Assembly (NCBI GenBank): GCA_006218065.1
Contig: VBWE01000002.1
Location: 10,154 to 74,153, forward strand
DNA length: 64,000 bases
Direction: 5' to 3'
Source of the DNA: Bacteroidota bacterium
GTDB lineage: Bacteria > Bacteroidota > Bacteroidia > Palsa-965
The notes under the pieces were generated by a model, which did not search any database, had not been told where the DNA came from, and worked only from the letters and a program-made list of their open reading frames with translations. Numbering within the stretch: the stretch's first letter is position 1; each line of letters begins with the position of its first letter. Made by a program: the position numbers and the translations under genes. This document shows, piece after piece, positions 1 to 14,325 of the stretch.

Positions 1-1494
1 GTCGAGGTTCTCGTTGCGCAGGCTCAGGAAGTAACTGTAATTGTTCAGCACGTAGGCGTTGTCGGGATCGAGCACCAGCGCTTTGTCAAAATACTCGTCC
101 GATTTGTCATGCTTCTTCAGTCCGTTGTATGCATCGCCGATCGCGGTGTAAAACTGGACCTGCAGCGCGTTATTATCCACCACGAAAGCCGAGCCGGTCT
201 GCAGGTTGCTGATCGCGTCCTGGTATTGCTTTTTCTTGATCAGCGTGAGCCCGAGGAAAAAATACGGCGTGGGCTGGCTCGGGAAAAGTTCCACAGCCTG
301 CTTTGCATCGATCAGCTGCGACTCGTCATCGTTCAGCTGCGAGTTGAGCAAAAGCAATTCATTCCAGATCGCGAAACGGTTTTTATCCAGTGCGAGCGCT
401 TTGCGGTACATCTCCCGCGCTTCTTTTCGCTTTTCTTCGCGGGAAAGGAAATCGCCGTAAATGGAAAACGCTTTTGCTTCGTCGGGATGCACCCGGATCA
501 GCGTTTTGCAGATCGAATCCGCTTCTATTTTAAGATCGGGCATCTGCCGTTCGGGATTATCCGTGGCGTAATAATAGTTGAGCAGGATCTTCACTTTCGT
601 ATCGATGTCCACCGAGGGCTGGCGGAAAGCGGCGATCATTTCGGAAAACGCACGCGCGTGATCTTTCTGCCGGCGGTAATATTCCGAAAGCGAAAGATGT
701 ACGTACCCGTTTTCGGGATCTACCAGCAACAGCTGGTTGTAAAGCTCCGCTGCTTTTTCCGGCTTGCCGGTTTTCTGGTAATAATCGCCGAGCATGCCGT
801 AGTAACGGCTTTCTTTCGGGTTGGTATCGATCAGCTCCTGCAGGGTTTTGATTATTTTTTCTTCGTCGCCTTTCCGCTCCAGGATTTTGAACTTTTGCAG
901 GAGCAGTGCTTCTGAAGGGCCGGTAATCTGTTCGATGCGGTCGAATACTTTCAGGGCTTCGTCCGGTTTATTCGCATACAATAATGCGTCGGCATATTCG
1001 GCGAGAAACTCCACTTTGCCCGGGTAGGTTTTGGTGAGCTTCTGCAGAACGGAGGCGGCTTCATCGAATTTGTAATTCTGCTGCAGCACCACCGCGTAAA
1101 GCCGCTGGTACCAGGGATTCGCGGGGTCGAGCAGGGCGGCTTCCTTTGCGTGCGGGAGTGCGAGGGCCGACTGGCTGCGTTCGCTGTACAGGTCGGCCAC
1201 TTCGTAATGTGCGGCGGCATTTTTCGGGTTCATCGAAATGCAGCGCTCGTAAAGCTTCATCGCTTCGGCGTAATTGCCCAGCATTTTTTCCCTGCTCGCG
1301 TCGATGAAAATGGCCTGCTGTTCGAGCTCTTCGGTGGGAATTACTTTGGGCACGCTGTTGCCGCCGGCGGGATTCGTTTTTGTTTTTCCCTTGTTGTCGC
1401 CCGAATAGGCGGTTGCAGGCGCACCGCTTTTGCAGGAAGCGAGCAGCAGGCAGAAGCCCGCGAGGAAAAAACAAATATGTCGGCTGTTTTTCAA
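1..1494 (-). CDS. TPR-repeat lipoprotein (partial; C-terminal end lies beyond window start)
   Basis: The minus-strand frame is open from the window edge to ~1494. The translation has a signal peptide with a lipobox (..FCLLLASC..) followed by TPR-like repeats (..AIGDAYNGLKKHDKSDEYFDKALVLDPDNAYVLNNYSYF..). There is no in-frame ATG at the N-terminus, so a TTG start (rc of 1492-1494) is inferred. It is absent from the ORF track because it lacks an ATG or a stop within the window. The listed + ORF 109..915 is its antisense shadow. Confidence 0.65.
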   Translation of the reverse strand, partial: MKNSRHICFFLAGFCLLLASCKSGAPATAYSGDNKGKTKTNPAGGNSVPKVIPTEELEQQAIFIDASREKMLGNYAEAMKLYERCISMNPKNAAAHYEVADLYSERSQSALALPHAKEAALLDPANPWYQRLYAVVLQQNYKFDEAASVLQKLTKTYPGKVEFLAEYADALLYANKPDEALKVFDRIEQITGPSEALLLQKFKILERKGDEEKIIKTLQELIDTNPKESRYYGMLGDYYQKTGKPEKAAELYNQLLLVDPENGYVHLSLSEYYRRQKDHARAFSEMIAAFRQPSVDIDTKVKILLNYYYATDNPERQMPDLKIEADSICKTLIRVHPDEAKAFSIYGDFLSREEKRKEAREMYRKALALDKNRFAIWNELLLLNSQLNDDESQLIDAKQAVELFPSQPTPYFFLGLTLIKKKQYQDAISNLQTGSAFVVDNNALQVQFYTAIGDAYNGLKKHDKSDEYFDKALVLDPDNAYVLNNYSYFLSLRNENLD

Positions 1495-1495
1495 A

Positions 1496-2506
1496 TCAGT
1501 TTCCGTGAATCGTTGTATAGTCACCGATGCTCAGATCGGCCGGTTTTCCACAAAGTTCGGCGTGATTTCCGATCATCGCACCGGCCACAACCGCGTTACT
1601 TATCCTGGAATTATTCTGCACGATGGTATTCCGTATAACGCTGTTTTCCACTACGGTGTTGTTCCCGATGGACGCATGCGGACCGATAACCGAGTTTCGG
1701 ATCACCACGCCTTCGCCGATAAAGCAGGGCGGAATGATCACGCTGTTCTCGTTTTTGTGGTTCCCGGTCAGTTCCGGCTGTCCTTTGCAGAACTCGAGCA
1801 CGCGCTGGTTGGTATAAACCGTGGCGTCCTTGTTTCCGCAGTCGAGCCATTCGGATACTTTACCCGGTGCAAATTTCACGCCCTTTTGCTTCATATTCTC
1901 CAGGGCATTGGTCAGCTGGTACTCGCCTTTGTCGCGGATATTGTTGTCCAGCAGGAACTGCAGTTCGCGTTTCAGGAAATCGCCGTCGCGGAAATAATAA
2001 ATCCCGATGATGGCCAGGTCGGAAACAAAAGCCTGCGGTTTTTCCACGAAATCGGTGATATGCCCGGCATCGTCTACTTTCACCACGCCGAAAGCGCGCG
2101 GGTCTTCGATCTTCTGCACCCAGATGATGCCTTCCTGCGTGGTATCCATTTTAAAATCGGCTTTGAAAAGCGTATCGGCGAAAGCCACCACAACCTTCCC
2201 GCTGATCACGGGTGCGGCGCACATGATGGCATGCGCGGTGCCGAGGGCTTCTTCCTGGTACCAGATACTTCCTTTGGCGCCGAGCTTCCCGGCCACATCG
2301 GTGAGCATGTTTTCCACTTCTTTTCCGAAAGAGGGACCGATCACAAAAGCGATTTCCTCGAGCGGTTCGTGGCATACTTTGGCGATATCCTCTACCAGCC
2401 GCTGTACGATCGGCTTGCCGGCTACCGGCAGTAAAGGTTTCGGAATAGTAAGCGTATGCGGGCGCATCCGTTTTCCCATACCCGCCATTGGAACGATGAT
2501 TTTCAT
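1496..2506 (-). CDS. sugar-phosphate nucleotidyltransferase with C-terminal left-handed beta-helix (GlmU/RmlA-like)
   Basis: The N-terminus carries the nucleotidyltransferase signature MKIIVPMAGMGKRMRP..LLPVAGKP. The C-terminus has hexapeptide repeats (VIGPHASIGNNTVVENSVIRNTIV..). Confidence 0.8.
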   Translation of the reverse strand: MKIIVPMAGMGKRMRPHTLTIPKPLLPVAGKPIVQRLVEDIAKVCHEPLEEIAFVIGPSFGKEVENMLTDVAGKLGAKGSIWYQEEALGTAHAIMCAAPVISGKVVVAFADTLFKADFKMDTTQEGIIWVQKIEDPRAFGVVKVDDAGHITDFVEKPQAFVSDLAIIGIYYFRDGDFLKRELQFLLDNNIRDKGEYQLTNALENMKQKGVKFAPGKVSEWLDCGNKDATVYTNQRVLEFCKGQPELTGNHKNENSVIIPPCFIGEGVVIRNSVIGPHASIGNNTVVENSVIRNTIVQNNSRISNAVVAGAMIGNHAELCGKPADLSIGDYTTIHGN

Positions 2507-2521
2507 ACTTCCTGTTTCATG

Positions 2522-2543
2522 GGGCGATGCAGTGCATCGCCCT
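2522..2543. other. GC-rich hairpin between dut and the downstream nucleotidyltransferase gene
   Basis: gggcgatgca/tgcatcgccc is a perfect 10-nt inverted repeat, 16 nt upstream of the 2506 start codon on the minus strand. Confidence 0.3.
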
Positions 2544-2579
2544 TACATTTGTACGGGCGTCCGTCGCCCGGTTGGATTT

Positions 2580-3011
2580 TTATTTCCCCGTATGCCCGAA
2601 GCCGCCGCTTCCGCGTTCGCTGCCGGCAAGTTCATCCGCGGGTTGCCATTCCACTTTGGCGTGCGCTGCTACTACCAGCTGGGCGATGCGTTCGCCGTCG
2701 TTGATGGTAAACGCCTGGTTGGAAAGATTGACCAGTATGACTTTAACTTCGCCGCGGTAATCGGCGTCGATGGTTCCCGGCGAGTTGAGCACGGTAACGC
2801 CGTTTTTGGCCGCCAGCCCGCTGCGCGGACGAACCTGTGCTTCAAACCCTTGCGGTATTTCCAGGAAAAGCCCGGTAGGAACCAACGCTCTTTCGAGCGG
2901 AGCGAGTGTAACGGGCTCGTCGAGCTGCGCGCGCAGGTCCATCCCGGCTGCGCCGGCAGTGGCGTATTCCGGTAACGGGTGGCGTGATTTGTTGATGATG
3001 CGGACGTTCAT
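2580..3011 (-). CDS. dut: dUTP diphosphatase
   Basis: The 143-aa product carries canonical dUTPase motifs ([42 protein letters not shown]). Confidence 0.95.
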
Positions 3012-3032
3012 ATTTTCTTACGCGAATTTAGC

Positions 3033-4496
3033 TCATTTTTTGCGAAGGGCCGGTCCTTCCAGTTTCCAAAGCAGCAGCAGGTACGGCACCAGCAACACGT
3101 TTTTCAGCAGCAGGTCGGGCCAGAACGAACCGGTACTGATGAGCGTGGAAAGCAGGAAAAGCCCGATCGCGATAGCCAGGTAGGTCAGTATCCTGCGTAC
3201 GCTGTATTTCACCGGGAAATATTTCTGCCCGAAATAATACGAAGCGATCGCCATGAACGAATAGCAGATAAGCGTGGCCCAGGCCGAACCCATATAGCCG
3301 ATGCGCGGGATCCAGAAGATATTCAGCCCGACCGTAATCGCCGCGCCCGCCAGTGTGAGCCAGGCGCCGAACATGGTGCGGTTGGTGAGCTTGTACCAGA
3401 TGGAAAGGTTGAAATAAATACCCAGCGCGAGGTTGGCCAGCAGCAGGATCGGTACAACGCCCAGCCCGGAACGGTATTCGGTGCCGACGAGATACTGTAT
3501 CCACGACATGTTGACCATGGTGCCGAGGAAGATGATGGAGCAGGCGATCACGAAATATTTCATCACCCGGGCGTACACTTTTTTGTTTTCGCCTTCTTTC
3601 TGCTGCGCGAAGAAAAACGGTTCGGCGGCGTACTGGAAAGCCATGCGGAAAATGGTCATCAGGATGGCGATTTTATAACAGGCCCCGTAAATGCCCACGT
3701 CCGTCATAGCCTGGCTTTCGGGCAGCATATACTTCAGCAGCACGCGGTCCAGCGTTTCGTTCACCATGCCCGCCAGCCCGACCACCAGCAGCGGCAGGGC
3801 GTAGCGCATCATCCTTTTCCAGAGTTCGCGGTCAAAATCGTATTTAGGCGCGCGCATGTCCGGCAGGAGCAGCAGGAGCGAAACCATATTCGCCGCGAGG
3901 TTGGCCACAAACGCATAGCCGATACCGATGTTCGGGTTATAAAGCCCGGCCCAGAAACTGCCTGTTCCGTGTTCGTATTCCGATTTGCACCAGCCGATGA
4001 AAAACAGGTTGAGCAGTACGTTCACAAAAATGTTCACCAGCTTGATCGCGGCGAAACGCCTGGCTTTGTTCTGTTCGCGGAGTTTGGCGAAAGGAACCGC
4101 CGCCACCGCATCCGTACCCACGATCAGGATGCACCAGATGATAAAGTCGGCATGCCCGGGATAACGGAGCATCCCGGAAACCGGCCCGGCGAAAAGCAGG
4201 AAAGGAAGTACCAGCACCAGCGTGGAAACCCCTACGGAAACCAGGGCGGTATGATATACTTTTTGCTTGTCGGGCTCGGAATTGGAGAAATTGAACAGGG
4301 CCGTTTCCATCCCGTAGGTGAAAATGACATTCAGGAAAGAAATGTAGGCGAAGAACTCGGTATTCGTTCCGAAGTCGGCCGGCGCATCGAAAAGGTAGGT
4401 GTAAAACGGGACCAATGCATAATTGATAGCCCTGCCGAGTATCGTACTCAGCCCGTAAACGGCCGTCTGGCCCGCGAGTTTTTTCAGCGGGTTCAA
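3033..4496 (-). CDS. polysaccharide biosynthesis protein / oligosaccharide flippase (Wzx-like, multi-TM)
   Basis: The 487-aa product is highly hydrophobic with many predicted TM helices. Its N-terminus MNPLKKLAGQTAVYGLSTILGRAINYALVPFYT is typical of the PF01943 polysaccharide-biosynthesis family. Confidence 0.8.
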   Translation of the reverse strand: MNPLKKLAGQTAVYGLSTILGRAINYALVPFYTYLFDAPADFGTNTEFFAYISFLNVIFTYGMETALFNFSNSEPDKQKVYHTALVSVGVSTLVLVLPFLLFAGPVSGMLRYPGHADFIIWCILIVGTDAVAAVPFAKLREQNKARRFAAIKLVNIFVNVLLNLFFIGWCKSEYEHGTGSFWAGLYNPNIGIGYAFVANLAANMVSLLLLLPDMRAPKYDFDRELWKRMMRYALPLLVVGLAGMVNETLDRVLLKYMLPESQAMTDVGIYGACYKIAILMTIFRMAFQYAAEPFFFAQQKEGENKKVYARVMKYFVIACSIIFLGTMVNMSWIQYLVGTEYRSGLGVVPILLLANLALGIYFNLSIWYKLTNRTMFGAWLTLAGAAITVGLNIFWIPRIGYMGSAWATLICYSFMAIASYYFGQKYFPVKYSVRRILTYLAIAIGLFLLSTLISTGSFWPDLLLKNVLLVPYLLLLWKLEGPALRKK

Positions 4497-8375: not shown

Positions 8376-8466
8376 AATGGACCGATTTGAAAATTGAGAA
8401 AATGCCCTTGCGCGTTGAGTTGCGCGCATCTTCAAATTTTCAAATCGAGTCATTTTCAAATTAACC
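8376..8466. repeat. imperfect palindromic repeat element copy A (AT-rich arms gatttgaaaat../..attttcaaatc around GC-rich hairpin tgcgcgttgagttgcgcgca)
   Basis: The arms cgatttgaaaattgagaaaatgc and gcatcttcaaattttcaaatcg are reverse complements over 12+ nt. A second copy in inverted orientation lies at 9165-9245. Confidence 0.7.
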
Positions 8467-8530: not shown

Positions 8531-9061
8531 TTACGCACCTTTGATCAGTTCCACGTGGCAGAGCAGTTTTACCTCATCGCTCACCACCAGTCCGCCGGTT
8601 TCCGTCGCTGCGCTCCAGTGCAGGCCGAATTCCTTCCGGTTGATTTTGCCGCTGATTTCAAATCCTGCGCGCAGGTTGCCCCAGGGATCTTTCATTGTTC
8701 CGCCGAATTCCACCTGGAGATCGATCGCCTTAGTAACGCCGCGCATGGTCAGGTCGCCCGACATGTTAAACTGATCGTCGCCGCTTTTGGTGATCGTATT
8801 CGAAACGAACGTTACGAGCGGATGCGTTTCCGCGTCGAAAAAGTCAGGCGATTTCAGGTGACCGTCGCGCTGCTCGTTCCCGGTCGTGATGCTGTTTACA
8901 TCGGCGGAGAAAAAAATACGCGCCGAAGTAAAATCATCGCCGTCCGTTTCGGCTTTCACATCATATTTCGTGAAGCTGCCGGTAACGGTGGAAATGACAA
9001 GATGCTTTACTTTAAAAGTGATTTCCGAATGGGAAGGATCGATGCTCCAGTTGGTTTTCAT
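8531..9061 (-). CDS. yceI: YceI family protein
   Basis: The 176-aa product matches the YceI-like domain (..HSEITFKVKHLVISTVTGSFTKYDVKAE..GNEQRDGHLKSPDFFDAE..). Confidence 0.9.
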   Translation of the reverse strand: MKTNWSIDPSHSEITFKVKHLVISTVTGSFTKYDVKAETDGDDFTSARIFFSADVNSITTGNEQRDGHLKSPDFFDAETHPLVTFVSNTITKSGDDQFNMSGDLTMRGVTKAIDLQVEFGGTMKDPWGNLRAGFEISGKINRKEFGLHWSAATETGGLVVSDEVKLLCHVELIKGA

Positions 9062-9086
9062 GTCTTTGTCTGTTTGGTTAACAGCA

Positions 9087-9094
9087 CAAAGATA
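9087..9094 (-). promoter_or_regulatory. candidate -7 element (TAtcTTTG on minus strand) for yceI
   Basis: rc of cacaaagata gives a TAnnTTTG match ~27 nt upstream of the yceI ATG. Confidence 0.3.
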
Positions 9095-9164
9095 TAAATA
9101 AATGTTACAACATCTAATGTTGTTGCTTTAATTGTTTTATATTGATAACCACTGTATTGTAATT

Positions 9165-9245
9165 TGAAGATTCCCCGATTTGAAAATGGGGAAGATGCAC
9201 GCAGATCAAAGCGCATAGGCATTTTCTCAATTTTCAAAGGCAATG
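9165..9245. repeat. imperfect palindromic repeat element copy B (inverted relative to copy A)
   Basis: The rc of this segment (gcctttgaaaattgagaaaatgcctatgcgctttgatctgcgtgcatcttccccattttcaaatcgggg) aligns base-for-base with copy A, with a few substitutions. Confidence 0.7.
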
Positions 9246-9267
9246 ATTGCCGAGTTGGGACAAAGGG
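9229..9267. repeat. left inverted repeat bounding the AT-rich insertion
   Basis: aattttcaaaggcaatgattgccgagttgggacaaaggg matches rc of 14257-14296 (ccaatttgaaaaggcaatgattgctgtaatgggacaaagg) at ~36 of 41 positions. Confidence 0.6.
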
Positions 9268-9362
9268 TAAACTGAAATTTTAATCAAGCCCTGTGCTATT
9301 AGCGTCTTATTATTGGCACTTAGAATAATTGAACGAAATAACGAAAAGTATGCCGAATTGAG

Positions 9363-9869
9363 CTATTGCGGGGCTTTAATTAAGGTGCAAATTTGAGCGT
9401 ATTTTTTTCTAATACTAATCTTTATAGATGGCCCGGGAGGCTTTTCCATTAACACCCCGTTTTCAAATATTTTTACGACCGTATGAGGATACATACATTC
9501 CTCCGGATCATGAACCACTTTTAACTCATATTTGTTAGCTGGGATAGAGGTGTTTTGAATTACAATGTTTTCTATTTCTTTTATGGAAATGCGTACGATC
9601 CCATAATGAAAATAGTGGGTATTGGAAGTAGAACTAAATAATACATCCTCTGGGGTCAAGCAAAAATCTTGGCGATTGCAAGACATATTATCAGTGCTAA
9701 ATATGCTCTGGTCTATATCTCCTTTATCCGAAATAGAAAGTTTTCCGTTTTGTATTTTAGGAAAGCGGCGATAAAGCCCCTCGTCAATAGAAAAGATTTG
9801 CTGGTCTTGTCGATTGTCTTTGTGCAGATATTCTGGTATGCCCAGTTCCGTGCAAAAATTATTCGCCAT
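9363..9869 (-). CDS. hypothetical protein (gene 3 of three-gene operon)
   Basis: 168 aa with no recognisable motif. Its start overlaps the stop of the upstream gene (9859-9869). AT-rich. Confidence 0.55.
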   Translation of the reverse strand: MANNFCTELGIPEYLHKDNRQDQQIFSIDEGLYRRFPKIQNGKLSISDKGDIDQSIFSTDNMSCNRQDFCLTPEDVLFSSTSNTHYFHYGIVRISIKEIENIVIQNTSIPANKYELKVVHDPEECMYPHTVVKIFENGVLMEKPPGPSIKISIRKKYAQICTLIKAPQ

Positions 9870-10374
9870 GGGGTATTATGTCAAGCTTTTCCTTTAAACG
9901 ATTAAAAGTCAAGTCTTCACATTCAACAGTTTCCCCGCCAATATCTTTTAGCCAACCAATTTGCCCTTCATTATCAATCTCTATAGCAGAGTAAATATCT
10001 TTATATTTCATTTCAAACAAAAGACCACCATCGGGCGAGACGCTTATTTCATGCTCTATGCCCATGCTATTCAATGTATCTAAAACTGTATTTGCGATAG
10101 ATATGGAAATCTTGCTTGGAACATCTTTAATTCCTCGTTCCGATGCCCCGTCGGATTGAATTGCCTGCAAAAACAGCCTATGTTTATAAACAGTCTGCTT
10201 ATTTTTTGTTTGCTCGGATATTGCTTTAATGAGTTTATAACACTCTTCATTTTTTATTATATTTCCATAATGGGATGTTGCCGAAGATGGTTCTTTTAAA
10301 AAGCGCACATCTTCTATGACTTCAACTTTTTTTGCCGAGGCCGGGGGTATGTATGCGGGCGTACTTAAAGCCAT
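9859..10374 (-). CDS. hypothetical protein (gene 2 of three-gene operon)
   Basis: 171 aa with no recognisable motif. A 2-bp gap separates it from the upstream gene and it overlaps the downstream gene. Confidence 0.55.
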   Translation of the reverse strand: MALSTPAYIPPASAKKVEVIEDVRFLKEPSSATSHYGNIIKNEECYKLIKAISEQTKNKQTVYKHRLFLQAIQSDGASERGIKDVPSKISISIANTVLDTLNSMGIEHEISVSPDGGLLFEMKYKDIYSAIEIDNEGQIGWLKDIGGETVECEDLTFNRLKEKLDIIPHGE

Positions 10375-10376
10375 TT

Positions 10377-10724
10377 TTATTCGCCTTTAGATTCTGATTT
10401 CGATTCCGATCTTATTTTTTCAATTGCGTTGATATTGGCTTGAAGCCAATCTATCAACGTCTTTGCGGTATTAACATCCATCAAAAGACCAACTTGGACT
10501 TCTCTAACAGAGCCGTCTCTTTCATCTCTTTCGACTTCGGTAGAATGCGGAATTTGCGAAGATATTTCATTTATAATTTTTCGAGGGATAACGACTCTAT
10601 CAGTAAAAACATTCATGTCTATAAGGCCCTGAATGGTAACACCGCCAAAAGCCCCCGTTACTATAACGGTTTTATAGTCATTGTTTTTTATATAATGAAA
10701 GGAATGTTTGATTCTATCTTCCAT
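10377..10724 (-). CDS. hypothetical protein (gene 1 of three-gene operon)
   Basis: 115 aa with a glycine-rich motif ..KTVIVTGAFGGVTIQGLIDMN... It is divergent from the transposase gene. Confidence 0.55.
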   Translation of the reverse strand: MEDRIKHSFHYIKNNDYKTVIVTGAFGGVTIQGLIDMNVFTDRVVIPRKIINEISSQIPHSTEVERDERDGSVREVQVGLLMDVNTAKTLIDWLQANINAIEKIRSESKSESKGE

Positions 10725-10946
10725 GTTGCAAAGGTAATATAACTTGTTTGAGTTGGATAGCCAAAAATAGCTAATATTAAATACAATGGCTGTTGTGTTT
10801 AGTTAAGGTTGGAGCAAATTTTGCTGTTTTTTCATAAAAAAGTTACGCGTTTTTGCCTTGAAACGCAACAAAATCAACGCTTTCAGCGTTTAAGTAGTAT
10901 AACTTTTCGATACAATACCGAACCGACTTTAGCCCTGATTTTGCTT

Positions 10947-11852
10947 ATGAACCTGATTGACTTCTCCCGCTATTTTTCTACCGAAGAAATCTGCAAAAAA
11001 CATCTTGAACAAATGCGCTGGCCGAATGGCGTAACGTGTCCTTTTTGCGCAAGCGAACGTATCTACGTAACCAAGCGCGGGTATAAATGCGCCGACAAAA
11101 ACTGTTACAAGAAGTTCAGCGTAACAGTTGGTACGTACTTACAGGGAACGAAAATCCCGCTTGTAAAATGGTTCATGGCAATCTACATTTCAACGGCGCA
11201 CAAGAAAGGAATCAGTTCGCACCAGCTTGCAAAAGACATCGGGATAACTCAAAAATGGGCTTGGTTTATGTTACAACGCATTCGCGGCATTATGACCGAA
11301 AAGAACGCGGTTAAACTCAAGGGTGTAATTCAGGCCGATGAAACGCTGATAGGCGGTAAGGAGAAGAATAAACACGCTGTAAAACGCAATCCCAAAGCAT
11401 ACGGACGCGGGGGAAACAAAACAGTCGTGCTTGGTGTTCGTGATTTTGGCGGCGAAGTAAAAGCGTGGGTTATTCCCGACGCAAGCAGGCAGTATATCAC
11501 ACCCCTGATTCAGCAGAATGTAAAACAGGGTTCGTTTCTGTTTACCGATACATGGGGCGGCTACAATGATTTAAGTAAGTCGTTCGTCCATTTCAAAATC
11601 AATCACATCGAAGGGCAATACGTGCGCGGGTTTGTACATACGAATGGTATTGAAAATTTCTGGTCGCAGATGAAGCGGGGAATCAACGGCATTTATCATC
11701 AGGTTAGCCCGAAGCATTTGCACAGGTACGTTAGCGAATATTCGTTTCGGTACAACACGCGCAAGATCGGCGATTCGCTCCGGGTAGATTTTGCATTCGC
11801 ACAGTGCGCGGGTCGTCTGAAATGGAACGACCTGATAGCGGATAAAGTGTAA
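10947..11852 (+). CDS. IS1595-family transposase (N-terminal zinc-ribbon + DDE domain)
   Basis: The product from the internal ATG 10947 shows ..WPNGVTCPFCAS..YKCADKNCYKKFSVTVGT.. (transposase zinc ribbon). The ..VIQADETLIGG.. and ..FLFTDTWGGYNDL..HFKINH.. segments are ISXO2/IS1595 DDE-like. Confidence 0.85.
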   Translation: MNLIDFSRYFSTEEICKKHLEQMRWPNGVTCPFCASERIYVTKRGYKCADKNCYKKFSVTVGTYLQGTKIPLVKWFMAIYISTAHKKGISSHQLAKDIGITQKWAWFMLQRIRGIMTEKNAVKLKGVIQADETLIGGKEKNKHAVKRNPKAYGRGGNKTVVLGVRDFGGEVKAWVIPDASRQYITPLIQQNVKQGSFLFTDTWGGYNDLSKSFVHFKINHIEGQYVRGFVHTNGIENFWSQMKRGINGIYHQVSPKHLHRYVSEYSFRYNTRKIGDSLRVDFAFAQCAGRLKWNDLIADKV

Positions 11853-11860
11853 CTTTGAAC

Positions 11861-12007
11861 ATGGCCAAGAAGAAACCATCCAAGAAAAAAAAGAAGGTCT
11901 CCAAGTATCACGAGAAGATCAAGATTGACGGGTCGTTCGACGAAGTGCTAAAAGCAATGATTAATACCCCAAAACAGAAGGCATCCAAAAAAGAGAAAAA
12001 CAAATAA
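11861..12007 (+). CDS. small lysine-rich ORF (49 aa) immediately downstream of transposase
   Basis: MAKKKPSKKKKKVSKYHEKIKIDGSFDEVLKAMINTPKQKASKKEKNK. It is below the ORF-track size cut-off and its coding status is uncertain. Confidence 0.25.
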   Translation: MAKKKPSKKKKKVSKYHEKIKIDGSFDEVLKAMINTPKQKASKKEKNK

Positions 12008-12013
12008 AAGGCC

Positions 12014-12214
12014 CTAATAGGAAATAGGTCCAATAACAAATATTTCGTCATGCTCAAGAGCGTCACTATAAATTATGATGCTATGTTTCATGACTTCACT
12101 AAGGGTATCTTCGCAAGCAGAACCCTCATAATAACTCGACTCTCTTGAGGTTGTGTTATTGATAACGTAACAAGGAGAGAGAATTATACTTTCAGTATAT
12201 GTTGCTCTGTTCAT
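12014..12214 (-). CDS. small hypothetical protein downstream of SDH protease
   Basis: A 66-aa ORF on the same strand as the protease, 16 bp downstream of it. Confidence 0.3.
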   Translation of the reverse strand: MNRATYTESIILSPCYVINNTTSRESSYYEGSACEDTLSEVMKHSIIIYSDALEHDEIFVIGPISY

Positions 12215-12230
12215 TGCCTTACAAAGTTAA

Positions 12231-13265
12231 TTATTTTTTCGGTTCCGACAATATTTCGTGCCTCCAACCTTCAAAAGTCCTATTGTCTTGAATGCTGGTA
12301 TTTTGAATCGCAGCCCCTCCAGGTCCTTGAATACTTATTGGCTGTTTGTTATATGATCCTTCCGTGGTATATACATGACAACCATTGACAAGGCTTTCTA
12401 CGATAACCCGCCTATATGAATAATTAAGGTCATTCGTTGCTGCCATAAGTATTTTAGGTTCAAGAGGCACAGTCAAAAGCATTTCTGTTTCAATGCTTTT
12501 GTATATGCTGTTTATTATTGAATACAGATTATCGTCTGGCTTTTCAATAGGCAACCCCAGCTCCTCTTTTGCTTCTTTGCGATAAATCGTGTAATCATGG
12601 CTACCGGATTCGCTACACAAGAAGTTGATAATTGGTGTTTGTTTATCTTCTTCTGTAACCCCCTGCTTTGTTAACAGCTTTTTAGCAAGCATTTGAATTT
12701 GGCTTCGTGTCCTATATACTTCACCCAAAGACATGGGATGAATCTTTTCGGACAAAGCAATATAAATATCAGCAAGCGCACGCGGGTCTGTGATTTTTAA
12801 TTCTTCCTTTGCCATTCCTAAATACGCGCTTACAACCTCAACGCTTACAGGAACACGAACCCTTTGGCCATTGTGTTCTATCAAGGGATTCATCATGCCA
12901 TTTGTGCTTGGATCTATTGGCCCCAACGTAGCCTGTTTGGTCATGATGATATTATTAGCGCCAAGGCACATTAATGTTCCGGCGCTATGACAATGTAATG
13001 GAACTATTATTTCCAGTTGCTTGCAGAAACTCCTCAATAAGTTTACTATGCTCCATGCCGCAATAGTATTTCCTCCCCTTGTGTAAAGAAATAGAGAGAT
13101 TTTTTCAGTGTCGCCGATTTTATCCAAGTGCTCCGTAAAATGCGGCAGCACTTCTTGACTAAGCTGTGTTTCAAGCCCACGCCGATCACCTGTAACGTAA
13201 ACCAAGAGCTTGGACTTTCTTAGTTTCTCAAGCTCTGCGTACAATTTTATTCTTTCTTTGAACAT
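12231..13265 (-). CDS. SDH-family Clp-fold serine proteinase (SppA/ClpP-like)
   Basis: The ..LFLYTRGGNTIAAWSIVNLL.. and ..HCHSAGTLMCLGANNIIM.. segments resemble the PF01972 serine dehydrogenase proteinase family. Confidence 0.6.
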   Translation of the reverse strand: MFKERIKLYAELEKLRKSKLLVYVTGDRRGLETQLSQEVLPHFTEHLDKIGDTEKISLFLYTRGGNTIAAWSIVNLLRSFCKQLEIIVPLHCHSAGTLMCLGANNIIMTKQATLGPIDPSTNGMMNPLIEHNGQRVRVPVSVEVVSAYLGMAKEELKITDPRALADIYIALSEKIHPMSLGEVYRTRSQIQMLAKKLLTKQGVTEEDKQTPIINFLCSESGSHDYTIYRKEAKEELGLPIEKPDDNLYSIINSIYKSIETEMLLTVPLEPKILMAATNDLNYSYRRVIVESLVNGCHVYTTEGSYNKQPISIQGPGGAAIQNTSIQDNRTFEGWRHEILSEPKK

Positions 13266-13372
13266 ACGGGGGAGGTCTTCAAGCAGACAATTAATGGGTT
13301 TTTTACAAGTATTTTCAAAGTCCGTTGATAACTATTTTTCAACTAATTGAAAATCAAGATAATTCATTCGAA

Positions 13373-13603
13373 TCACATCCCCTTCACCAATTCCGAAACC
13401 GTCACATTCAGCGCCTTCGCCAACTTAATCATGCTGGAAAGTTTTATGTCTGCGCCCCGCTCCCATTGGTTAATCTGAACGCGACCGAATCCGTGATCGT
13501 AAGCAAATATCTCTTGGCTCGTATAGCCAGCTTTCTTACGTAGCTCCTTTACCCTTGCTCCGAAGGTTTCCAAATCACCTTTCTTTTTGGCCTGCTTTTT
13601 CAT
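13373..13603 (-). CDS. XRE-family helix-turn-helix transcriptional regulator
   Basis: ..FGARVKELRKKAGYTSQEIFAYDHGFGRVQINQWERGADIKLSSMIKLAKALNVTVSELV is an HTH_3 pattern. The start is taken at the internal Met (MKKQAKKK). Confidence 0.7.
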   Translation of the reverse strand: MKKQAKKKGDLETFGARVKELRKKAGYTSQEIFAYDHGFGRVQINQWERGADIKLSSMIKLAKALNVTVSELVKGM

Positions 13604-13681
13604 GTATGCAAGGGAAGAAATACCATAATTCTTTACAACGTCATGCAATATGACATATTACAATAGTCTTTTTTAGTATGT

Positions 13682-14140
13682 TTGCCCGAAAACGGCACTA
13701 TGAAAATCATTCCAAGACGCGACATTCATAAGCTATTCCCGGTAGGCTTGAAGGACTGGCTGAAATCGAAAGACTGCCACATGAGAAAGAATTACGTGCA
13801 GGCTATTTCAGAGGGACGTTTCAGCAAGTGGGGTTATCTTCGGTTACTGGAAGCGTACCCGGAATATCAACACTGGTTTCAGCACGAAGGGTTCCGGTTG
13901 GTTACTTCGCCTTTACACCGAAAGAAATACAAGTTCCTGATCTGCCCGGTAGGGAGTACCGCGCTACCGGAAACGATTAAGCAGGGAATGAAAGAGCAGG
14001 GGATGCGCTCGGTACATGAACTGCTGCTTACATACGACTACCTGCAAATGCGTATGTACGAAATCCTGCATAACAGTGATTGGAAAGATTTCATTCGTGC
14101 GCTGCATCATTACAGATGCTACGACATGTTAGAGGTATAG
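13682..14140 (+). CDS. hypothetical protein divergent from XRE regulator
   Basis: 152-aa ORF, AT-rich, with no recognisable domain. Confidence 0.45.
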   Translation: MPENGTMKIIPRRDIHKLFPVGLKDWLKSKDCHMRKNYVQAISEGRFSKWGYLRLLEAYPEYQHWFQHEGFRLVTSPLHRKKYKFLICPVGSTALPETIKQGMKEQGMRSVHELLLTYDYLQMRMYEILHNSDWKDFIRALHHYRCYDMLEV

Positions 14141-14256
14141 ACTTTACCCCGAAGCGCACACGGGGAAAGTTGTGCGTTAAAAATGCAATCTGGTATATGA
14201 CGGGAAAGGGGCCATGCTATTCGCGTACTTCATAGAAGCCCCTTTCTTTATTAATA

Positions 14257-14296
14257 CCTTTGTCCCATTACAGCAATCATTGCCTTTTCAAATTGG
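14257..14296. repeat. right inverted repeat bounding the AT-rich insertion
   Basis: See the left inverted repeat at 9229-9267. Confidence 0.6.
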
Positions 14297-14325
14297 CTCA
14301 ATTGAGTAATCCGGAAAACGGAATT

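Follow-up and report, generated by a model that had tools for sequence, protein, structure and literature searches.

A translationally coupled gene trio on mobile DNA of a Bacteroidota bacterium may encode a toxin–antitoxin-type module with an ADP-ribosyltransferase-like effector

Among the described systems, CmdTAC is a toxin–antitoxin–chaperone anti-phage system with an mRNA ADP-ribosyltransferase (ART) (Vassallo et al. 2024, PMC11618068). Here we compare it with three adjacent open reading frames, ORF1, ORF2 and ORF3 (locus tags FD123_359-361), on the minus strand of a 64,000-nt stretch of a Bacteroidetes metagenome-assembled genome (MAG; contig VBWE01000002.1, positions 10,154 to 74,153; hereafter the window). 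Like CmdTAC, the trio consists of three small co-transcribed genes, predicted to encode an ART-fold effector, its neutraliser and an accessory protein; both have a mobile or defence-type character, and in both the ART is recognisable only by remote structural similarity. The two differ in gene order, which is toxin–antitoxin–chaperone in CmdTAC and accessory–partner–effector in the trio. ORF1 bears no likeness to SecB, of which CmdC is a homologue, and the H-Y-[E/D/Q] triad kept by CmdT does not appear to be conserved in the ORF3 family. CmdA combines N-terminal helices with a disordered C-terminal tail for chaperone addiction; in ORF2, it is the C-terminal domain that is conserved and the N-terminus that varies.

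By sequence, the trio is no member of DarT-DarG, ParT-ParS, RES-Xre or MbcT-MbcA, and no Pfam match to DarT (DUF4433) or RES was obtained. It departs from these two-gene ART toxin–antitoxin (TA) systems in its partner, ORF2 being no macrodomain or Xre/COG5642-type protein; in its gene order, with the partner ahead of the putative toxin; and in a third, variable gene that is usually present. The omega-epsilon-zeta system comprises a regulator, an antitoxin and a toxin, in which zeta has a kinase fold and omega is a ribbon-helix-helix (RHH) repressor. The order and logic of the trio are similar, with a small first gene that is dispensable or replaceable, a putative antitoxin in the middle, a putative toxin at the end and tight coupling, but neither the zeta kinase fold nor the omega RHH fold was found in the trio. 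In Tse2-Tsi2, the ART-like fold and a non-canonical active site belong to a type VI effector of Pseudomonas; unlike this pair, the trio has no type VI genes nearby, shows no sequence similarity to it and is mobile. Bacterial COMMD-like proteins carry an extra helical domain and are encoded in secretion- or injection-type clusters (PMC13392464). Their genes do not occur with ART-like genes, whereas ORF1 does and lacks the helical N-terminal (HN) domain. No description of the module turned up in PADLOC v2, Pfam or NCBIfam, nor in the searchable literature on DUF3467, ART-based tripartite systems and Tse2/Tpt1-like TA toxins. Thus, the trio looks like an undescribed ART-toxin conflict module built from unannotated families.

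We read the trio as a horizontally mobile TA or abortive-infection-type module with an ART-fold effector, and give this reading a probability of roughly 0.55. It is the most economical one because of the combination of an ART-fold protein with a coupled, diverging partner, two co-varying forms of that partner, an interchangeable first gene and AT-rich mobile DNA. A preliminary description, made from the sequence alone, had guessed at a TA, abortive-infection or anti-phage module. The coupled partner, the AT-rich module, the IS1595 transposase, and the phage and defence neighbours support the direction of this guess, and it is from these features that we infer the function.

The strand and sizes of the three genes agree exactly with what the preliminary description had listed (Table 1), and the translational coupling that it proposed can be read in the sequence. 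The ORF1/ORF2 junction is TAA-AA-ATG, which leaves a 2-bp gap, and the end of ORF2 overlaps the start of ORF3 by 11 bp (common stretch ATGGCGAATAA). The GC content of the trio is 0.36-0.37 and its third-codon-position GC (GC3) is 0.31-0.37, compared with a GC3 of 0.63-0.66 in the host neighbours yceI, a 463-aa gene and a phoH-like gene. The AT-rich codon usage noted earlier therefore stands, but the contrasting "GC-rich host core" was a mild overstatement, as the host has only about 49-55% GC. A candidate -7 promoter box upstream of ORF1 fits TAnnTTTG exactly, the Bacteroidetes promoter consensus; a scan for sigma-70 sites showed no enrichment (7 sites against 6.7 expected).

The proteins had been described as orphans. 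This did not hold, as ORF1 and ORF3 belong to large unannotated families and a family of ORF2 could be assembled through synteny. From a word-indexed protein search, we obtained self-matches and one relative of ORF3 with 36% identity, the contig of which carries overlapping genes of 108, 173 and 161 aa in the same arrangement. Between this contig and the window, ORF1 is 28% identical (E 1e-16) and ORF3 36% (E 1e-33); similarity to ORF2 is barely detectable at the equivalent position. With the three proteins concatenated, an exhaustive HMMER search gave 1352 cluster representatives at a cut-off of E <= 1e-3, of which 303 remained at E <= 1e-10. Among the 150 matches listed, some were ORF1-like (~110 aa) and the others ORF3-like (~170 aa), with none for ORF2. 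Using the ORF3 motif HxP[EL]xCMYPH, we fetched 17 loci from GTDB genomes, 28 from metagenomes and one from IMG/VR viral contigs, and added six contig look-ups for ORF1 homologues (loci are cited below by their L numbers).

In 44 of the 45 evaluable loci, the window included, profile hidden Markov models (HMMs) placed a coupled second gene directly before the ORF3-type gene (T). This second gene is either of the ORF2 type (A_a) or of another family of ~152 aa (A_b), the two having no profile similarity (hhalign probability 0.2%). Adjacent, co-oriented and coupled small genes conserved as a pair are a mark of type II TA systems; a DNA-binding domain for autoregulation, another such mark, was not found in ORF2, and ORF1 might take over this role. 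The first slot is occupied by an ORF1-type gene (C1), by C2 (~240 aa), by DUF6941, by a 620-aa DUF7380/DUF4209 protein, by others, or by nothing. C2 occurs with either A type, and there is no mutual profile-level homology among the gene-1 variants (C1, C2, DUF6941 and others). Starting from the other end, five of the six sampled ORF1-family members begin a three-gene set of the same sizes, and for the four of these with DNA the HMMs confirmed C1 + A_a + T. The unit, the recurrence of which the preliminary description had proposed to examine, is thus found in many bacteria and on one phage contig; it is conserved as a unit, and no well-known family of unrelated function was matched. T proteins partnered by A_a keep S63/N65/R66, while those partnered by A_b diverge at these positions. 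Such co-variation of toxin subfamily and partner type is typical of toxin–immunity pairs, and a swappable first gene is typical of defence systems.

Several variants of the arrangement were also seen. A sister module with C2 + A_b and more divergent toxins (L011-L019, L036-L047) is common in MAGs of Chitinophagales, Saprospiraceae and Flavobacteriaceae. On two metagenome contigs (L029 1562-2137, L031 1074-1697), the gene-1 slot holds DUF6941 (PF22091), a family without known function. In two loci of Leptospiraceae type (L003 95-5272, L026 252-5465), an A_a + T pair lacks an ORF1-type gene and overlaps the end of the 620-aa DUF7380/DUF4209 protein. An Eco57I-type methylase precedes the latter, and the whole resembles a defence island. 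Up to 31 contigs carry the gene-2 protein found in this variant.

ORF3 probably encodes an NAD-using, toxin-type enzyme with an ART-like fold, as judged from its structural model. This fold was given by one of the two structure-comparison methods; Foldseek against the PDB with the ORF3 model returned no significant match, and a PDB profile search with ORF3 returned nothing. When residue conservation was computed over 91 family members, D75, L77, H120 and H129 were invariant and C6, P12, L15, C125, Y127 and P128 nearly so. All members have an arginine, R34 or R35, on the first core strand (beta-1); 85% retain S63, where beta-2 begins, and 71% retain E123. The spacing of these R, S and E positions in the sequence is reminiscent of an R-S-E arrangement, with no canonical triad. 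The named ART families covered by our searches were RES (PF08808), DarT/DUF4433, Tpt1 (PF01885) and Tox-ART. No ART-related Pfam or NCBIfam model matched ORF3 at E <= 0.1, where YukC/EssB appeared as the only, sub-threshold match, and ART-family models matched none of 48 ORF3-family members (E <= 0.01) or five type-b members (E <= 0.05). With PADLOC models, ORF3 gave one sub-threshold Type I specificity match (E 0.018). PADLOC-DB v2.0.0 contained no significant match for ORF1-3 or for the C2, A_b and type-b T proteins. Together with the Pfam, NCBIfam and PDB sequence searches, which were likewise without significant match for ORF1-3, this bears out the earlier statement that none of the three has an assignable motif.

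ORF2 retrieved only itself in large protein searches. Its family evolves fast and is detectable only through synteny: BLASTP against homologues found in this way gave E-values of 1e-6 (L004), 4e-4 (L009) and 2e-3 (L008), and an HMM built from eight loci matched the gene upstream of T in ~25 loci, with E-values down to 1e-28. In the family alignment, the N-terminal half is hypervariable, and a module of ~90-110 aa at the C-terminus is conserved. The family has no relative in Pfam or the PDB, and HTH (helix-turn-helix), RHH and AbrB domains were found neither in ORF2 nor in 22 family members. PDB profile matches of the family to designed PPR proteins were rejected as a repeat artefact, consisting of ten stretches of 2-4 bits each, none of which passes alone. 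Similarly, an alignment by MAFFT of gene-2 homologues onto the ORF1 block does not reflect homology (hhalign probability 0.4%).

For ORF1, the model is confident and shows a small beta-sheet with a long C-terminal helix, a COMM-domain-like fold. ORF1 has neither the N-terminal helical domain nor the COMM sequence match of a COMMD-family member. The glycine-rich segment pointed out in the preliminary description (KTVIVTGAFGGVT) is present, with G24, G27 and G28 conserved across the family. We considered it as a nucleotide-binding loop and rejected this, as it is modelled as a beta-strand and turn and no P-loop family matched. DUF3467 (PF11950) matches 5 of 47 ORF1-family members weakly (best E 1.8e-4) and does not match ORF1 of the window at E <= 0.1. 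The ORF1 family is not strictly tied to the module, because one copy (L055 4001-4375) lacks both gene 2 and the toxin gene and stands alone; its small phage-like neighbours include a Terminase_2 fragment and an RHH protein.

In the proposed mechanism, ORF3 would be a small stand-alone effector enzyme with an ART-like fold and would most likely arrest the cell, either by transferring ADP-ribose from NAD+ to an essential protein or nucleic acid or by consuming NAD+. ORF2 would be its obligate cognate partner, most likely binding and neutralising ORF3 through the conserved C-terminal domain; the two would be made together because ORF2 lies directly upstream of ORF3 and overlaps its start. ORF1 would be an exchangeable accessory, COMM- or PC4-like, probably working as an oligomer. 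It may be a regulator, comparable with omega, or a trigger sensor or scaffold that times the release of ORF3 by ORF2. The toxicity, the NAD+ chemistry, the direction of neutralisation, the role of ORF1 and the anti-phage function are all what we infer.

The genomic settings of the module are consistent with mobility. In 24 of 26 loci its AT content exceeds that of the flanks, with a mean GC difference of -7.3 points, and IS1595 transposases adjoin it twice, in the window and in L052. In the latter (1038-3277), a transposase 40% identical to that of the window is followed directly by an ORF1-family gene and then by a gene of 186 aa, which fits neither gene-2 family; the contig ends before any third gene. 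A 57-kb phage contig from IMG/VR (L048 141-10401) carries a window-type C1 + A_a + T trio, with portal and MuF/gp7-like head-morphogenesis genes on one side and a UmuD/UmuC-like pair and a helicase on the other. In three further loci (L049-51), the trio is inserted between ribD and ccm genes. Scans of viral contigs for the ORF1 family gave nothing that was confirmed. The 138 neighbouring ORFs of 24 loci include Type I, II and IIG methylases, DpdE/ZorD-like helicases, MkoA and mad2, and the alternative gene-1 protein of L003 matches the PADLOC candidate PDC-S39. On the question raised in the preliminary description, whether the triplet lies in defence islands, restriction-modification and defence-type genes occur among some neighbours, with no enrichment established statistically.

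Several observations weigh against a TA or abortive-infection module with an ART-fold effector. Neither classical ART triad (H-Y-E or R-S-E) appears to be conserved in the ORF3 family, and ART, RES, DarT, Tpt1, antitoxin and PADLOC models gave no significant match to ORF1-3. ORF2 has no recognisable DNA-binding or enzymatic domain. The neighbourhoods are mixed, with many ordinary sensor kinases and secreted proteins, and they show no statistically established defence-island enrichment; tblastn of ORF3 found no homologue in annotated plasmids or cultured phages. Should ORF3 resemble ARTs by chance, through a widely shared alpha/beta topology, this conserved mobile module would have a function other than NAD chemistry, for instance as a complex with a regulatory or structural role or as a metal-dependent enzyme that relies on H120, H129, C6 and C125; we consider this alternative unlikely. 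Still less can be said for the idea that the ORFs are chance frames in AT-rich junk beside an insertion sequence, the probability of which is negligible. The sole point in its favour is that the three have no family annotation. Homologues of all three exist with their order conserved across several phyla, pairwise E-values within these large families go down to 1e-33, and the predicted structures of ORF1 and ORF3 are highly confident. ORF1-3 are real genes, because dozens of unrelated contigs carry their homologues with order and coupling preserved, and chance ORFs are excluded.

The remaining alternatives accept an ART-like effector and differ in its purpose. The trio could be offensive or host-takeover cargo of mobile elements, ORF3 acting against the host or competitors and ORF2 being its immunity protein or chaperone, in the manner of the T4 Alt/Mod enzymes and of toxin cargo placed next to MuF/gp7-type head proteins. 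The position of the trio in the phage contig L048 speaks for this, being one known for toxin cargo in other phages. However, trafficking, Rhs, PAAR and MuF domains are all absent from ORF3 and its relatives, which are ~165 aa long and stand alone, most loci are chromosomal with no phage structural or secretion-system genes nearby, and the only viral contig comes from IMG/VR, with none among cultured phages; we regard this explanation as quite improbable. We find it harder still to credit a non-toxic role in NAD+-dependent nucleic-acid processing or repair, with ORF3 as a Tpt1/KptA-like 2'-phosphotransferase or end-modifying enzyme and ORF1 as a PC4/Pur-alpha-like single-strand binder. No sequence match to PF01885 or KptA models was obtained, and the adjacent Arg-His of the R-H-R-R tetrad is not seen in the sequences, where the family appears to keep L15-H16 instead. 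There are also no RNA ligase or other repair genes in the neighbourhoods, and a fast-evolving obligate partner, two unrelated partner forms and AT-rich mobile contexts fit conflict systems better.

The TA or abortive-infection reading also has a wider version, which is possible, if somewhat unlikely. According to this, the trio would belong to an undescribed, modular and widespread immune system of the abortive-infection type, shared by Bacteroidota, Acidobacteriota, Spirochaetota and their phages. The effector would form a new ART branch with a His/His/Asp (+Cys) site in place of H-Y-E or R-S-E, possibly with Tpt1-like chemistry on nucleic acids, held by a cognate inhibitor and connected to interchangeable sensors. 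ORF1, one of these sensors, would be a stand-alone prokaryotic COMM-like domain, and a fold known from the eukaryotic Commander complex would have its first role in bacterial conflict.

In the window, the trio lies between yceI (PF04264, E 2e-47) and an IS1595-type transposase, as the preliminary description had placed it, and both families were matched by profile. From ~9000 to 14300, the GC content is 0.35-0.47, against 0.49-0.58 in the surroundings. This island of ~5 kb, with the trio inside, is bracketed by a 39-nt inverted repeat, both arms of which coincide with its composition boundaries. The ungapped score of the repeat was 21, compared with 14.3 +/- 1.6 and a maximum of 20 in 30 dinucleotide shuffles, so that its significance is suggestive rather than overwhelming. 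An 8-bp target-site duplication is expected for the IS1595 family; none was found at the island ends, where the flanks read cattttct and gctcaatt, and no clean terminal repeats close around the transposase or IS1595 ends were found. The transposon-like insertion suggested earlier has moderate support, with a transposase inside the island, a repeat that scores just above the shuffle maximum, and neither a target-site duplication nor IS1595 ends found. The true start of the transposase is probably the ATG near 10947. A mosaic of GC3 values within the island, 0.31-0.39 for the trio and a protease gene and 0.53-0.60 for the transposase, an HTH gene and a 152-aa ORF, suggests that it was assembled from pieces of different origin. 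The protease, the HTH gene and the 152-aa ORF may be a second, separate cargo module. The gene yceI is itself flanked by a 28-nt inverted repeat, which has a TTTTCAAAT core in common with the 39-nt repeat. Rfam gave one chance microRNA match on the island (23.9 bits against a threshold of 113 bits).

Table 1. Features of the window at and around the gene trio
Feature	Coordinates	Strand	Remarks
ORF1	10377..10724	minus	115 aa; accessory first gene, C1 type; start at 10724
ORF2	9859..10374	minus	171 aa; partner gene, A_a type; putative antitoxin/neutraliser
ORF3	9363..9869	minus	168 aa; putative effector/toxin, T; new family
Candidate Bacteroidetes-type -7 promoter box TACCTTTG	10729..10736	minus	ends 4 nt before the ORF1 ATG
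IS1595-family transposase	10809..11852	plus	PF12762 E 1e-39, PF12760 E 2e-11, NF033547 E 4e-57; divergent from the trio
39-nt inverted repeat, left arm	9228..9266		33/39 positions complementary to the right arm
39-nt inverted repeat, right arm	14257..14295		pairs with 9228-9266
39-nt repeat, partial third copy	12211..12228		
28-nt inverted repeat around yceI	8436..8463 and 9160..9187		86% complementary
Further hairpin	9179..9198 / 9219..9238		
Lysine-rich 50-aa ORF	11855..12007		directly after the transposase stop codon
ClpP-like SDH-type serine protease	12231..13265	minus	PF01972 E 2.9e-14; inside the low-GC island
XRE-type HTH protein	13373..13648	minus	inside the low-GC island
152-aa ORF	13682..14140	plus	divergent; no family; inside the low-GC island

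If the trio is a TA or abortive-infection-type module, three to six unannotated protein families would gain an annotation, ORF1 and ORF3 by themselves accounting for over a thousand clusters at 50% identity. These families would form a single modular, toxin-based conflict system, frequent among environmental Bacteroidota and Acidobacteriota, two phyla with a poorly charted repertoire of defence and TA systems, and members with a non-canonical active site would be added to the ART superfamily. In its swappable first gene, the module would provide a natural experiment, in which one effector–inhibitor pair is wired to different sensors or regulators.

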